DNA of 61,754 nt from a virus. Within the stretch, counting starts at the first letter, position 1. Each line of letters opens with the position of its first letter. The stretch covers positions 1-61,754 of IMG/VR virus record IMGVR_UViG_3300044983_000045. One strand, written 5' to 3'. Below the pieces are notes generated by a model. The model was not told the DNA's origin, did not search any database, and was given only the letters and a program-made list of their open reading frames with translations. Both the position numbers and the translations under genes were made by a program. This document shows, piece by piece, positions 52,053-58,480 of the stretch.

Positions 52053-52967
52053 GTGGCAGCGTACTACAACGAGATCGACCCGTTCGCCGCGGCATGGCTG
52101 CGGGAACTGATCAAGGCAGGGCTGATCGCAGATGGCGAAGTCGATGAGCGGTCAATCGAACTTGTTCGGCCTGACGACGTGCGAGGATTCGTCCAGTGCC
52201 ATTTCTTCGCCGGCATTGGCGGCTGGAGCCTCGCGCTCAGACTCGCAGGCTGGCCCGATTCTCAGCCAGTCTGGACCGGCTCATGTCCCTGTCAGCCGTT
52301 CTCGTCAGCCGGCACCAAAATTGGCGGGAATGATCCGCGCGACCTTTGGCCTGTCTGGTTCCAGCTCGTCAAAGAGTGCCGCCCTGTCGTCGTCTTTGGT
52401 GAACAAGTTGAAGCAGCGATTGGATATGGATGGCTCGATCGTCTTTGCGATGACCTGGAAGCGGAAGACTACGCCGTCGGGCCGGTTGGTTTACCGGGTC
52501 CATGCGTCGGCTCGTTCGATGCGAGACACCGCTTGTGGTTTGTGGCCGACGCCGGACACGCACACGGGAGGGCGAACAGTTCCGAGCAATTCCGTTTGGT
52601 CGGGCGCGACGGTTCGCAGTCCGAAGGGCCAAAAGCGACAAGTCAGTCTCGAAACGGTCGCACGTTTTGCGACGTGGGCGAGTCCTACCGTCGGAGACAG
52701 CGAACGCGGCGGATCGATCAATCAACAGTCTGGAATGACGCGACCGAGCGGCGCGAAGATTGGTCTGATGTTAATTCATCAGGCGCAACTTTCTGGTCCG
52801 CTGCCGAGTGGATCAACTGCACCGATGGCAAAGCGCGGCCAGTTGAACCCGGCACATTCCCGTTGGCTCATGGGGTATCCAACCGCGTGGGACGACTGCG
52901 CGGCTACGGTAACGCGATCAAGCCGCAAGTCGCGCAAGTCTTCATCGAAGCCTATATGAGCATTTAG
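52053..52967 (+). CDS. DNA (cytosine-5)-methyltransferase, copy 1
   Basis: Motif I FFAGIGG, motif [10 protein letters not shown], motif VI FGEQV, motif [12 protein letters not shown], motif [11 protein letters not shown], all in one 304-codon frame. Confidence 0.8.
52132..52959 (+). CDS. Nested +1-frame ORF inside methyltransferase gene 1 (PTP-motif / ...[17 protein letters not shown] protein; coding status unresolved)
   Basis: 275-codon ORF fully inside 52053..52967. Its translation is not low-complexity: ...[13 protein letters not shown]...[16 protein letters not shown]...[13 protein letters not shown]...[21 protein letters not shown]. Confidence 0.4.
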
Positions 52968-53257: not shown

Positions 53258-53551
53258 ATGTCTGAATCCCTCACCCAAGAGATTACCCATCGCACCGGGA
53301 AGCGCAACGACATCATCGCGCTGTTCCAGTCCAAGCCGTTGCAATGGATCGGTGTCCACGAACTCGCGCATGTCGGCGGCTTCGCCTCCTGGCGGACACG
53401 GGTGAGTGAAGCTCGTCAAGTGATCGAAAAAGAGGGCGGATCGCTGAAGTGGAACGAGGACTGCCGGGAGTCAGCCTACATGTTCCTGCCGTACGTTCCG
53501 GTCGCTCGTGCGGCGGATGTTCAGCCTCCCGACCAACCGGCGCTGTTTTAA
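53258..53551 (+). CDS. Hypothetical (winged-helix-like) protein
   Basis: 97 aa. NDIIALFQSKPLQWIGVHELAHVGGFASWRTRVSEARQVIEKEGGSL. Confidence 0.5.
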   Translation: MSESLTQEITHRTGKRNDIIALFQSKPLQWIGVHELAHVGGFASWRTRVSEARQVIEKEGGSLKWNEDCRESAYMFLPYVPVARAADVQPPDQPALF

Positions 53552-53654
53552 GGCTGAAATGCTGAGTGTTTCTGGTAAAATGAGCGGAGTCAGCGAGTGT
53601 GTTCAGCACGCGCTGACCCCTAACCACAATCCCGACACTGGAGGTGTCGCGGTC

Positions 53655-54206
53655 ATGGCTGAAGTTCATTCTATCAGGCGTGTCAGCGTTCGGACTCGCT
53701 TCGAGATTTTCAAGCGCGACAAGTTCACCTGTCGCTACTGTGGTCGCACGTCGCCGGCCGTCGTGCTCGAGATCGACCACATCGTTCCGATCTGTGAAGG
53801 TGGGACGGACGATCCGATCAATCTGGCGGCGTCGTGTTGGGAATGCAACCACGGCAAGTCAGGCGTGCCGCTCTCAGAGACGTTGACTGGAGAAGACCCG
53901 CACGATCGCGCGATTCAACTTCTCGAACGTGAACGCCAGCTCCGCGAGTACAACGCCGTTCTCGCTGAGGCGCGTGAGCGCCGTCTAGACGATGCCTGGG
54001 AACTTATTCGCTACTGGATGAACGACGAGAAGTGCTGCACGTTTAATCGGTCTGAACTCTCGTGGTTGGTGAGCACGCTGGAGTGGTTGCCGTTGGAAAC
54101 CATTCGCGCTTTCATGGATTCCGCGATTCGTGCCGACGCGATTAAGGACTTGCGCTACGTCAAGGGCTGCGTTCGCAACTTTAGAGGCGCCCAAGGGAAT
54201 GGCTAG
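53655..54206 (+). CDS. HNH endonuclease with C-terminal helical domain
   Basis: GGAGGTG lies 10 nt upstream of ATG 53655. RFEIFKRDKFTCRYCGR...LEIDHIVPICEGGTDDPINLAASCWECNHGK. Confidence 0.8.
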   Translation: MAEVHSIRRVSVRTRFEIFKRDKFTCRYCGRTSPAVVLEIDHIVPICEGGTDDPINLAASCWECNHGKSGVPLSETLTGEDPHDRAIQLLERERQLREYNAVLAEARERRLDDAWELIRYWMNDEKCCTFNRSELSWLVSTLEWLPLETIRAFMDSAIRADAIKDLRYVKGCVRNFRGAQGNG

Positions 54207-54873
54207 GATTCGGATGATCAAGCCTGAATTCTTCGACGATCCTGATGTGGCTGACGTATCGCTGGCCGCACGTCTCTGCTTCATTGGGCTGTGGACCCAA
54301 GCCGACCGAGAAGGGCGTCTTGTGGACGACCAGCGCCGGTTGAAGGTGCGTCTGTTCCCTTACGACGACGTAGAAATTGCCGACCTATTAGACGAACTCG
54401 TCGCGAAAGGCATGGTCATCAGTTACCGCGGCGACGATGGACGCGATTACTTGTTCATTCGGAAGTTCTCAAAGCATCAACGCCCGCATCCTAAAGAGCC
54501 GGCGTCAGTTATACCAGTACCACCTAGTAAGACCGTGGCCAGTAACGGCGAGCCGTGTAAAAACATTTCCGACCCGTCGGAATCTGGAGTCTTGAGTCTT
54601 GAGTCTGGGACACGGAATCTGGATCAAAAAGATAAAGCAGCGGCGAGGACGCCGCGTCCGTCCGCTTCGCGTTCGGAGCCGCCGACGGAGAACTTTCGGA
54701 TCATCACGAAGATCGCGCATGAAGCGATCGACATCGAAGGCATCGACGCAGACCTGGGGCAACTCGCGGACGCCGTCAAGAGCCTCTGTGCGATTCGGTC
54801 GATCACCTACAACAGCGACGTGGTTCGGAAGGCTGTCGATTCAGCGCTCGCGCAACGGCGGAAAGCCTCATGA
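54199..54873 (+). CDS. Putative replication-organiser / winged-helix DNA-binding protein
   Basis: IKPEFFDDPDVADVSLAARLCFIGLWTQADREGRL...RLFPYDD...FIRKFSKHQRPH is an N-terminal pattern common in phage replication-region proteins. Function tentative. Confidence 0.35.
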   Translation: MARIRMIKPEFFDDPDVADVSLAARLCFIGLWTQADREGRLVDDQRRLKVRLFPYDDVEIADLLDELVAKGMVISYRGDDGRDYLFIRKFSKHQRPHPKEPASVIPVPPSKTVASNGEPCKNISDPSESGVLSLESGTRNLDQKDKAAARTPRPSASRSEPPTENFRIITKIAHEAIDIEGIDADLGQLADAVKSLCAIRSITYNSDVVRKAVDSALAQRRKAS

Positions 54874-57499: not shown

Positions 57500-58480
57500 A
57501 TGGCGCTGACAGTCGGATCGTTGTTCGCAGGAATCGGCGGGTTCGACTTGGGCTTTGAGCGTGCGGGTTTCGAGATTCGGTGGCAGGTTGAGATTGACCC
57601 GTTTTGTCGGGAAGTGCTGGCGAAGCACTGGCCTGACGTGAGGCGTTACGAAGATGTTCGATCCTGTCGCGGTGTGGCTCGAGCGGCATACGGGAAAGAC
57701 TGCGGACCTAGCCACGGACCAGAAAGCGACGTTTGGGAAGATCGCGGATGGACTACGCCCGATGGAGTGGAGCCGGCCAATCGGCCGCACCAACTCTCAG
57801 GCGTCGATGTCATCGTCGGCGGATTCCCCTGCCAGGACATCAGCAGCGCCGGCGCCAAGGCAGGAATAGATGGAGCGCAGTCGGGTCTTTGGTCGGAGAT
57901 GTTCAGATTGGTTCGCGAGATTCGACCCGCCTACCTCGTTGTGGAGAACGTCGCAGACCTCCTTGCTCGGGGACTCGGACGTGTTCTTAGCGATCTGGCC
58001 TCGGTCGGGTATGACGCGGAATGGGACTGCATTCAGGCTGCAGCCATTGGCGCGCCGCATGGCCGTGACCGTCTCTGGCTCATCGCTTATCCCAACACCG
58101 ACGAAGGGCGATGCGAAATCTGCGGCCAATGCCACGGCTCGGCGTCACAAAACGCCGCCGACGGGCATTCACGCCGGCATGACCCTGACCGACTTCGTGC
58201 GAATCTACCCGACGCCGCAAGCGAGACAGAAACAGAACGGGCGCGGCGGCGGCAGGGGAGCCGGCTCAATTTCGAGGGGTGGCGGGTTGATGCTCGACAA
58301 CGTGCTGGGTGGGAAACCGAACCCGATGTTTGTCGAGTGGCTGATGGGGTATGCCCTGGGTTGGACAATGCTCGACTCGCTGCGTTGGGAAACTCTATCG
58401 TCCCGCAGATCGCGGAGTTTCTCGCGCGTCGCATCCTCGAAGCGGAAACCGTAGCAGCGACGGAAGTTACCCGTGCATGA
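57500..58480 (+). CDS. DNA (cytosine-5)-methyltransferase, copy 2
   Basis: Motif I LFAGIGGF, motif IV GGFPCQDIS, motif VI LVVENV, motif VIII GAPHGRDRLWLIA, motif X LGNSIVPQIA, all in one 326-codon frame. The middle (58090-58330) is Arg-rich and low-complexity in this frame. Confidence 0.75.
   Translation: MALTVGSLFAGIGGFDLGFERAGFEIRWQVEIDPFCREVLAKHWPDVRRYEDVRSCRGVARAAYGKDCGPSHGPESDVWEDRGWTTPDGVEPANRPHQLSGVDVIVGGFPCQDISSAGAKAGIDGAQSGLWSEMFRLVREIRPAYLVVENVADLLARGLGRVLSDLASVGYDAEWDCIQAAAIGAPHGRDRLWLIAYPNTDEGRCEICGQCHGSASQNAADGHSRRHDPDRLRANLPDAASETETERARRRQGSRLNFEGWRVDARQRAGWETEPDVCRVADGVCPGLDNARLAALGNSIVPQIAEFLARRILEAETVAATEVTRA
57870..58454 (+). CDS. Nested +1-frame ORF inside methyltransferase gene 2 (PTP-motif / ...NPMFVEWLMGY..GWT protein; coding status unresolved)
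   Basis: 194-codon ORF: ...SLWRTSQTSLL...IWPRSGMTRNGTAFRLQPL...SSLIPTPTKGD...IYPTPQARQ...NPMFVEWLMGYALGWT. The same frame is also open at 57654-57869, separated by one TAG. Confidence 0.4.
   Translation: MERSRVFGRRCSDWFARFDPPTSLWRTSQTSLLGDSDVFLAIWPRSGMTRNGTAFRLQPLARRMAVTVSGSSLIPTPTKGDAKSAANATARRHKTPPTGIHAGMTLTDFVRIYPTPQARQKQNGRGGGRGAGSISRGGGLMLDNVLGGKPNPMFVEWLMGYALGWTMLDSLRWETLSSRRSRSFSRVASSKRKP

Follow-up and report, generated by a model that had tools for sequence, protein, structure and literature searches.

The virus record IMGVR_UViG_3300044983_000045 of IMG/VR, a phage-like metagenomic contig of 61,754 bp which was analyzed over its entire length and is called the window here, carries a C5-cytosine DNA methyltransferase gene in which a second open reading frame (ORF) lies nested in the +1 frame, raising the question of whether this stretch of DNA encodes one protein or two. 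We name the outer ORF alpha (frame A) and the nested ORF beta (frame B); beta spans 90% of alpha, which runs on beyond the beta stop codon. The initial annotation of the window, made from its letters alone, placed both ORFs correctly and quoted peptides that are all present in their respective frames. It offered three readings, namely, a genuine nested overlapping gene, a mosaic enzyme produced by a +1 and then a -1 frameshift, and a recently frameshifted segment with compensating indels. The conservation of the layout, the frame-specific selection signatures, and the open frames support the first of these, and we consider the locus to be a genuine nested gene pair, whose products most likely form a C5-cytosine DNA methyltransferase with two subunits, as in M.EcoHK31I. 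M.EcoHK31I is the heterodimeric enzyme of Escherichia coli HK31 in which this layout was first demonstrated. Its beta gene is contained over its full length in the alpha gene, in a different frame (PMC2836561, PMC3404938), the alpha chain being described to carry motifs I to VIII and X and the presumed recognition domain and the beta chain to carry motif IX (PMC2836561).

Families and conservation of the two reading frames

Each of the two frames has a large family of its own. The frame-A protein matches the methyltransferase family PF00145 in Pfam with 42 bits (cut-off of 22, E = 1e-10, profile positions 66-174) and phrog_363 over its full length (E = 2.5e-73), and at least 8,000 related proteins are found in large protein collections. 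The frame-B protein has no match in Pfam or NCBIfam and matches phrog_1008 (E = 1.3e-27) and phrog_31772 (E = 1.9e-12), both of which are labelled "DNA methyltransferase". A word-index search with frame B yields 2,992 proteins, all without a Pfam domain and mostly unnamed or "hypothetical", and a profile built from 81 frame-B sequences recovers 30,165 cluster representatives at E <= 1e-3, of which 8,868 also pass a cut-off of 1e-30. The initial annotation had stated that a frame-B translation without significant homologues would speak against a second gene, whereas thousands of proteins are matched. The (E/R)WLMG(F/Y)P..W element that it ascribed to phage methylase-associated proteins was also confirmed, with matches in phrog_1008 and in two proteins described below, Tadhana gp55 and Float294 gp61. 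As frames A and B are each recovered separately in the protein collections, gene callers have chosen one frame or the other, contig by contig.

The layout was compared in 80 IMG/VR loci chosen by frame-A similarity and in 80 loci chosen by frame-B similarity alone, the latter with no selection for an intact frame A. In the first set, frame A was located in 78 loci, and the +1 frame is open for 222 to 353 codons in every one of them, compared to only 28 to 160 codons in the +2 frame. In the second set, frame B was located in 74 loci, and in all of them frame A continues across it without a stop. Taken together, the nested pair is present in every homologous locus in which both frames could be located (about 150, with a GC content of 0.51 to 0.69), and the stops in frame B of homologues that the initial annotation had regarded as contrary evidence are seen in none of the located loci.

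The nested arrangement is also found in named phages. Both ORFs are annotated in E. coli phage K1H, as ORF29 ("C-specific methylase") and, nested at +1, ORF28 ("Mte8-like protein"); the "Mte8" label, which was found in the literature solely as an annotation in one phage paper, may refer to a methylase entry of Swiss-Prot. A protein search started from K1H ORF28 brought up no entry with the name EcoHK31I. The gene for the 389-amino-acid (aa) protein gp41 of Salmonella phage epsilon15 contains an unannotated +1 ORF of 338 codons. In Paenibacillus phage Tadhana, both nested coding sequences (CDSs) are annotated as gp54 and gp55, without comment in the Paenibacillus phage paper. The Tadhana methylase is about 25% identical and has a canonical N-terminus, and gp55 contains LTWK, three W.TP modules, and GQLNPDWVECLMGFPIGW.

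On a Citrobacter freundii plasmid (accession no. NZ_CP032182, positions 255-1265), the Prokaryotic Genome Annotation Pipeline (PGAP) annotates alpha alone, as "DNA cytosine methyltransferase", leaving the beta match in the +1 frame unannotated. In the tblastn search of plasmids, all 21 matches with an annotated feature, among those listed, fall under a single CDS named "DNA cytosine methyltransferase". The same search returned no single-chain relatives with the W-x-T-P region in frame and only the same nested type.

An open second frame could also be an artefact or an accident. It might be open by chance because the DNA is GC-rich, stem from an indel introduced during assembly, or result from a recent frameshift that other indels have compensated. 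The contig was assembled from a metagenome, and 10% of the synonymous shuffles of frame A of the window gene, which has a GC content of 60%, leave the +1 frame stop-free; in the +2 frame, the same stretch is interrupted by 11 stops. The open +1 frame of the window gene alone is not statistically unusual (P ~0.10), and the case therefore rests on comparative evidence. The same shuffle test in relatives with lower GC content leaves the frame open in 0 of 2,000 shuffles for K1H and in a fraction of 0.0005 for epsilon15. Both frames are open in all of the ~150 loci over their whole range of GC content, the frame-B family has its 30,165 cluster representatives, and frame B has a codon-position selection signature of its own, all of which leaves an artefact with next to no probability. 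The claim of the initial annotation that frame B does not read like GC-rich noise is borne out by this conservation and by the shuffles of K1H and epsilon15, and its third reading, the recent frameshift, is contradicted by a layout that is conserved across distant phages.

Frame-specific selection and the putative start of beta

We aligned 74 non-identical genes by their frame-A proteins and, separately, by their frame-B proteins. The codons were then placed onto either alignment to determine how well each codon position is conserved and how often pairs with the same amino acid use the same synonymous codon. Over alpha residues 1-96, frame A varies most at its third codon position (identity of 0.35-0.54, compared to 0.68-0.92 for positions 1 and 2), and the frame-A synonymous identity of 0.43-0.47 corresponds to the baseline. 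The first ~70 residues of beta are an unconstrained passenger leader, which is yet kept open. Over alpha residues 97-168, conservation hardly differs between the three codon positions (0.70/0.74/0.72 in one stretch, for instance), and the frame-A synonymous identity is 0.66-0.67; this segment is truly dual-coded. In the middle of the gene (beta residues 145-228), frame A is unalignable, and in the W.TP module it is the third position of frame B that varies most (0.56/0.68/0.41), with a frame-B synonymous identity of 0.45, which again equals the baseline. At the RWLMGYP element, the amino acid identity is 0.86 in frame B compared to 0.67 in frame A, and the frame-A synonymous identity reaches 0.91. 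This motif-IX-like element has invariant residues L238, N239, L246, and G248, and most of its other positions are at least 90% conserved. At RLRGYGNAI, the third position of frame A is once more the most variable (0.84/0.88/0.61), with a frame-A synonymous identity of 0.59. Along the gene, the constraint thus passes from frame A only to both frames, then to frame B only through RWLMGYP, and returns to frame A at GYGNAI.

The gene had been described as almost fully double-coding, which holds for the openness of the two frames and does not hold for dual constraint, as only two stretches, at about alpha residues 97-168 and 246-276, show constraint in frames A and B alike. Outside them, a single frame is under constraint and its counterpart just remains open. 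The synonymous sites of frame A, which the initial annotation proposed to check, are unusually conserved exactly beneath the frame-B motifs (0.66-0.91, compared to the baseline of 0.43-0.47). The two frame pairs reported to share bases do so, RLWFVAD (52530-52550) with GLWPTPD (52537-52557) and PLAHGVS (52860-52880) with RWLMGYP (52861-52881), and the middle third has the character ascribed to it, with frame A unalignable and predicted to be disordered and frame B carrying conserved modules.

Frame B is stop-free from position 52126 in the ORF list, its first ATG is offset by 79 nucleotides (nt) from the start of frame A, and a second ATG is found at 52144. In the family, the first frame-B ATG clusters at alpha residues 27, 31, 37, and 41. 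The commonest site lies in the frame-A peptide D-E-R-S-I-E-D-V, which is spelled with unusual codons: the invariant R33 is encoded by AGG in 40% of the genes, compared to 10% gene-wide, S34 by AGY in 80%, and D37 by GAT in 90%, compared to 42% gene-wide, followed by V38 (GTN). This codon bias yields AAGGAG-N8-ATG in the +1 frame of the relatives. The window gene is without that site, its residue 37 being Leu, and instead has the ATG at 52132, which arises from D27-G28. A scan for an internal promoter found none, and promoter and terminator signals were not above shuffle expectation.

The order of selection, from A to B and back to A, reproduces the canonical order of motifs I to VIII, recognition domain, motif IX, and motif X. 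This is what would be expected of a single mosaic chain, in which translation starts in frame A, moves to frame B by a +1 shift once motif VIII has been passed, and returns by a -1 shift ahead of motif X, and Gordonia phage Float294, described below, shows a +1 junction right after motif VIII in a relative. Such a chain, however, has no need of a frame A that is stop-free through the middle, and in that segment we find 0 stops compared to 2.6 expected per locus (median per-locus probability of 0.06 over 45 loci, from a conservative shuffle of frame-B synonymous codons), with frame A open in 74/74 loci. Neither does it need a frame B that is open for ~75 codons 5' of its first constrained residue (probability of ~0.37 per locus, with a product of 1e-21 over 46 loci) and that has a conserved start codon and a ribosome-binding-site codon bias ~110 codons 5' of the supposed shift. 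The ~70 dual-constrained codons, and RLWFVAD and LWPTPD on the same bases, would both be impossible in one chain, and the separately encoded alpha and beta chains of M.EcoHK31I reconstitute activity (PMC2836561). The shift-prone sites that the initial annotation proposed to look for were not found: of 60 genes, none has a -1 slippery heptamer X XXY YYZ between motifs IX and X, and past motif VIII the nucleotides vary, with no conserved string among them. What survives of the mosaic is the frame order of selection; its decoding mechanism does not, with frames open past the junctions and no slip sites, and we regard the single chain as very unlikely.

A chimera of alpha residues 1-166, beta residues 143-257, and alpha residues 284-304 scored 40.7 bits against PF00145, compared to 42 bits for frame A, and thus showed no gain, in a test of low power, since even the natural in-frame motif IX-X half of the Float294 enzyme escapes Pfam and PDB searches.

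Proposed division of the methyltransferase between alpha and beta

Motifs I, IV, VI, and VIII of alpha are invariant or near-invariant across 103 homologues, and motifs IV to VIII align to residues 70-170 of M.HhaI. Motif X is not aligned by profile hidden Markov models, though YGNAIKPQ is present. Structures were predicted with AlphaFold2 (AF2) from alignments of 103 sequences for alpha and 81 sequences for beta. In the alpha model, residues 1-170 mostly have a predicted local distance difference test (pLDDT) score above 90, with two dips, and the C-terminal helix 291-303 has a score of 94-95, whereas residues 180-242 remain below 50. The best Foldseek matches in the PDB are M.HaeIII and M.HhaI, aligned over merely ~164-199 columns, which correspond to the large domain. 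As the fold matches are limited to the large domain and residues 180-242 are disordered, alpha lacks a folded recognition domain.

The distance between motif I (residues 51-57) and motif IV (residues 79-84) of alpha is 21 residues, compared to ~55 in M.HhaI, and motif I is preceded by a confidently predicted strand-helix-strand (residues 3-31, with conserved YYNEID and GEVDERSI). This suggests that the motif II/III elements are placed before motif I, i.e., a local permutation.

The better-predicted parts of beta are a helix (residues 80-96) and a hairpin (residues 105-127), with pLDDT scores of 75-88. Motif IX of C5 methyltransferases has the consensus R.LT.RE.ARLQGFPD, which the C-terminal element of beta resembles by pattern. 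In Float294 (1183-2416), the methylase is annotated as two consecutive genes, 62 and 61; gene 61 is read in the +1 frame and shares 14 nt with gene 62. The frame of gene 62 ends behind motif VIII, and gp61 contains LLPTP repeats, LNPKLSEWMMGLPDG, and then, ~20 residues further on in the same frame, motif X (ILGNGVVPQQA). In the single-chain family phrog_116, residues 149-197 of gp61 correspond to positions 438-486, which lie downstream of where the N-terminal halves of alpha proteins match. This in-frame order and the phrog_116 mapping suggest that the C-terminal element of beta is motif IX by position. The family phrog_1008 is common to gp61, Tadhana gp55, the window beta, and beta2, the nested ORF of a second methylase gene in the window. 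The +1 frame of Float294 is open from 1337, ~460 nt 5' of the annotated start of gene 61.

The number of W-x-T-P modules in beta homologues ranges from about 2, as in the window and K1H, to at least 10. Two module-rich homologues, P0392 (572 aa) and P0367 (487 aa), imply alpha linkers of hundreds of stop-free, unconstrained codons. A further beta homologue, P0462 (499 aa), has a Cys-rich insertion of ~190 residues in its leader (CKRCATEKP...CKACV), which looks nuclease- or zinc-finger-like and must also split alpha between motifs IV and VI.

Several observations, besides the unremarkable openness of the window gene taken alone, weigh against the nested two-subunit enzyme. The window beta start is preceded by a weak Shine-Dalgarno-like AGGG only, ~10 nt 5' of the ATG at 52132. 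The AF2 model of beta has a mean pLDDT of 59, its Foldseek search returned only noise, and a sequence-profile search of the PDB with beta gave 0 matches at E <= 10; a model of such low confidence would fit a subunit whose folding depends on its partner, without counting as evidence for one. The motif-IX-like element is undetected by PF00145 and PDB sequence searches, its assignment drawing on pattern and position. The published recognition domain of M.EcoHK31I lies in its alpha chain, whereas the variable region of alpha is here unconstrained and predicted to be disordered, and the likeness to M.EcoHK31I is drawn from the layout and from published descriptions. Finally, alpha is damaged in some relatives. 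In Pseudomonas phage PMG1 (accession no. NC_016765, positions 1042-1910), the beta ORF is intact and is the sole annotated one, while the alpha frame has lost its first ~35 residues and has no ATG, GTG, or TTG before motif VIII; it is nonetheless open over 1075-1910 and retains intact copies of motifs I, IV, VI, VIII, and X. In two loci from different metagenomes (L080 and L082), a stop at ~1672 replaces the invariant Trp58 of alpha (FFAGIGV*SYAL), and beta is intact and extends further upstream. The alpha gene may have become a pseudogene there, the stop may be read through, or beta may be of use by itself.

Damaged alpha genes beside an intact beta raise the possibility that beta could have a role of its own. 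It would then be a real protein independent of alpha, for example, a DNA-binding, regulatory, or anti-restriction factor, overprinted on the linker of a self-sufficient methylase, which would suit PMG1, the two loci with a stop at Trp58, and the lack of a methylase-like fold in the AF2 model of beta. Beta is, however, never found apart from an alpha-type frame in ~150 loci, and an alpha without a folded recognition domain hardly fits a self-sufficient enzyme. In Float294, the element that ends beta lies in frame ahead of motif X, and the C-terminal methylase half of that phage falls into one PHROG family with beta. Both chains are required in M.EcoHK31I (PMC2836561, PMC3404938), and taken together, these observations make an independent beta unlikely.

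For the nested two-subunit enzyme, which we prefer, ribosomes starting at 52053 would read frame A throughout and produce alpha, composed of the catalytic large domain with motifs I to VIII, a disordered linker of ~70 residues whose sequence is not conserved, and a terminal part made up of motif X and the C-terminal helix. Ribosomes starting separately at an internal +1 ATG (52132 or 52144) would produce beta. Its unconstrained leader of ~75 residues would be followed by the helix and the TWK..TPSGR hairpin as a putative interface with alpha, by the W-x-T-P modules, which may recognize the target sequence, and by the motif-IX-like element. The two chains would assemble, with beta supplying the small (recognition) domain that is missing from alpha. 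We infer the translation of beta in this phage, its association with alpha, the setting of specificity by beta, and the enzyme activity. The features of the locus are listed in Table 1.

Table 1. Features of the nested methyltransferase locus and of the second methyltransferase gene (positions in the window)
Feature	Position	Strand	Description
Alpha ORF (frame A)	52053..52967	+	304 aa, GTG start; C5-cytosine DNA methyltransferase with motifs I-VIII, unconstrained linker, motif X
Beta ORF (frame B, +1)	52132..52959	+	275 aa, ATG start; nested, putative recognition / motif-IX subunit
Segment under frame-A constraint only	52053..52340	+	Alpha residues 1-96; from codon positions and synonymous identity
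Alpha motif I, FFAGIGG	52203..52223	+	S-adenosylmethionine (AdoMet)-binding loop; near-invariant in 103 homologues; aligned with M.HhaI FAGLGG
Alpha motif IV, PCQPFS	52287..52304	+	Catalytic cysteine; P79, C80, Q81, and P82 invariant; aligned with M.HhaI PCQAFS
Dual-coded segment	52341..52556	+	Alpha residues 97-168, beta residues ~71-142 with SSL.N.L, TWK..TPSGR, and WPTP; from codon positions and synonymous identity
Alpha motif VI, FGEQV	52395-52409	+	Inside dual-coded segment
Beta conserved stretch	52453-52485	+	Inside dual-coded segment
Alpha motif VIII, RHRLWFVA	52524-52547	+	Inside dual-coded segment
Beta WPTP	52543-52554	+	Inside dual-coded segment
Middle segment, frame-B constraint only	52564..52815	+	Beta residues 145-228; equals alpha residues ~171-254, an unalignable low-complexity linker
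Beta W-x-[TS]-P module, WASPTVGD	52675-52698	+	Inside middle segment constrained in frame B only
Beta motif-IX-like element	52837..52890	+	Overlaps alpha residues 262-279
Alpha GYGNAI / motif X region (YGNAIKPQ)	52902..52928	+	Constraint back in frame A; G286, N287, and I289 invariant
Alpha2, second C5-methyltransferase gene	57500..58480	+	326 aa; phrog_363 (E = 1.4e-72), phrog_116 (E = 6.5e-53)
Beta2, nested +1 ORF	57870..58454	+	194 aa; phrog_1008 (E = 2.9e-20)

The second C5-methyltransferase gene of the window has a nested +1 ORF as well. Its outer protein, alpha2, belongs to another subfamily, with a canonical N-terminal motif I, a low-complexity middle, and the motif X sequence LGNSIVPQ. 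The nested beta2 contains LIPTPTKGDAKS, IYPTPQARQK, and KPNPMFVEWLMGYALGWT, and its start context AGGA-N4-ATG is spelled by the alpha2 codons GGA and ATA, which are expected to be rare in a genome with a GC content of 60%.

The alpha-beta locus is flanked by HNH endonuclease genes, with a replication initiator downstream and no restriction gene adjacent. The ORFs of an HNH endonuclease (53508-54206) and of the replication initiator (54130-54873) overlap by ~77 nt in different frames, counted from the longest possible starts.

Comparison with known two-part and nested systems

The locus resembles M.EcoHK31I in that beta is nested in alpha in another frame and in that alpha has motifs I to VIII and X and not IX. 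The alpha chains are of similar size, with 304 aa here, and the M.EcoHK31I chains of Lee et al. 1995 are reportedly 309 aa (alpha) and 176 aa (beta) long, so that beta is longer here, with 275 aa. Internal Met codons can start the beta chain of M.EcoHK31I, whose first 42 residues are dispensable (PMC2836561), and the N-terminus of beta is likewise an unconstrained leader in the window. In contrast to M.EcoHK31I, the conserved W-x-T-P modules lie in beta, and the gene belongs to the replication module of a phage and has no restriction gene in its vicinity, whereas M.EcoHK31I belongs to a restriction-modification system.

A search of the literature on nested methylase genes in phages returned nothing beyond M.EcoHK31I and M.AquI, nor anything on how widespread the layout is. 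There are indications that the present family goes beyond the published picture in its scale and in that beta, and not alpha, carries the recognition modules. The sequences point to a wide distribution of the nested form among phages of Proteobacteria and Firmicutes, with a related consecutive +1 split in an Actinobacteria phage. A more tentative proposal, which we consider possible but rather doubtful, is that the nested layout might be the rule in a very large clade of C5 methyltransferases of phages, and no peculiarity of a single E. coli enzyme. In this clade, beta would be the specificity subunit, with 2 to at least 10 modules in an array that can grow and that is placed in the free frame of the alpha linker. 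If this is true, module duplication in beta would change or multiply the target specificity with the catalytic subunit untouched, resulting in a plug-in, possibly multispecific, anti-restriction methylase, and the published assignment of the recognition domain to the alpha chain of M.EcoHK31I would need revisiting. If beta sets the specificity via its W-x-T-P modules, these would also provide a handle to predict and engineer phage methylation specificity.

The arrangement also matters for annotation, as standard pipelines call one frame. PGAP calls alpha alone, and metagenome gene callers often call beta, which is left "hypothetical" and has no Pfam domain, so that half of a two-part enzyme is missed in very many phage genomes. 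Cloning alpha alone would probably yield an inactive enzyme. The locus is furthermore a large and deeply sampled case of a long same-strand overlap with segment-wise single- and dual-frame signatures, which can serve as a benchmark for overlapping-gene detectors.

PMC3404938 names M.AquI and M.EcoHK31I as the sole exceptions to the monomeric C5 methylases. M.AquI from Agmenellum quadruplicatum (Karreman and de Waard 1990) is described to consist of two polypeptides, with the split located within the variable region (PMC3404938). Its second subunit comes after the first and holds both motif IX and motif X, whereas here motif X is found in the alpha frame and beta is nested. It is the Float294 pair of genes 62 and 61, and not the window gene, that has the M.AquI-like consecutive layout.

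Same-strand nested pairs over a sequence-tolerant part of the outer gene are also represented by Rz/Rz1 of phage lambda, which is in the +1 frame and whose products cooperate, and by A/B and D/E of phage phiX174. Compared to these pairs, the overlap is much longer here (~830 nt), ~100 codons are constrained in both frames, and the products would be parts of one ancestral single-chain enzyme. The Bacillus phage enzymes M.SPRI and M.Phi3TI are orphan single-chain C5 methylases, which have all motifs in one frame and tandem recognition modules of ~40-50 residues that vary in number. Compared by architecture, they share a variable module number with beta and its 2 to at least 10 W-x-T-P modules.

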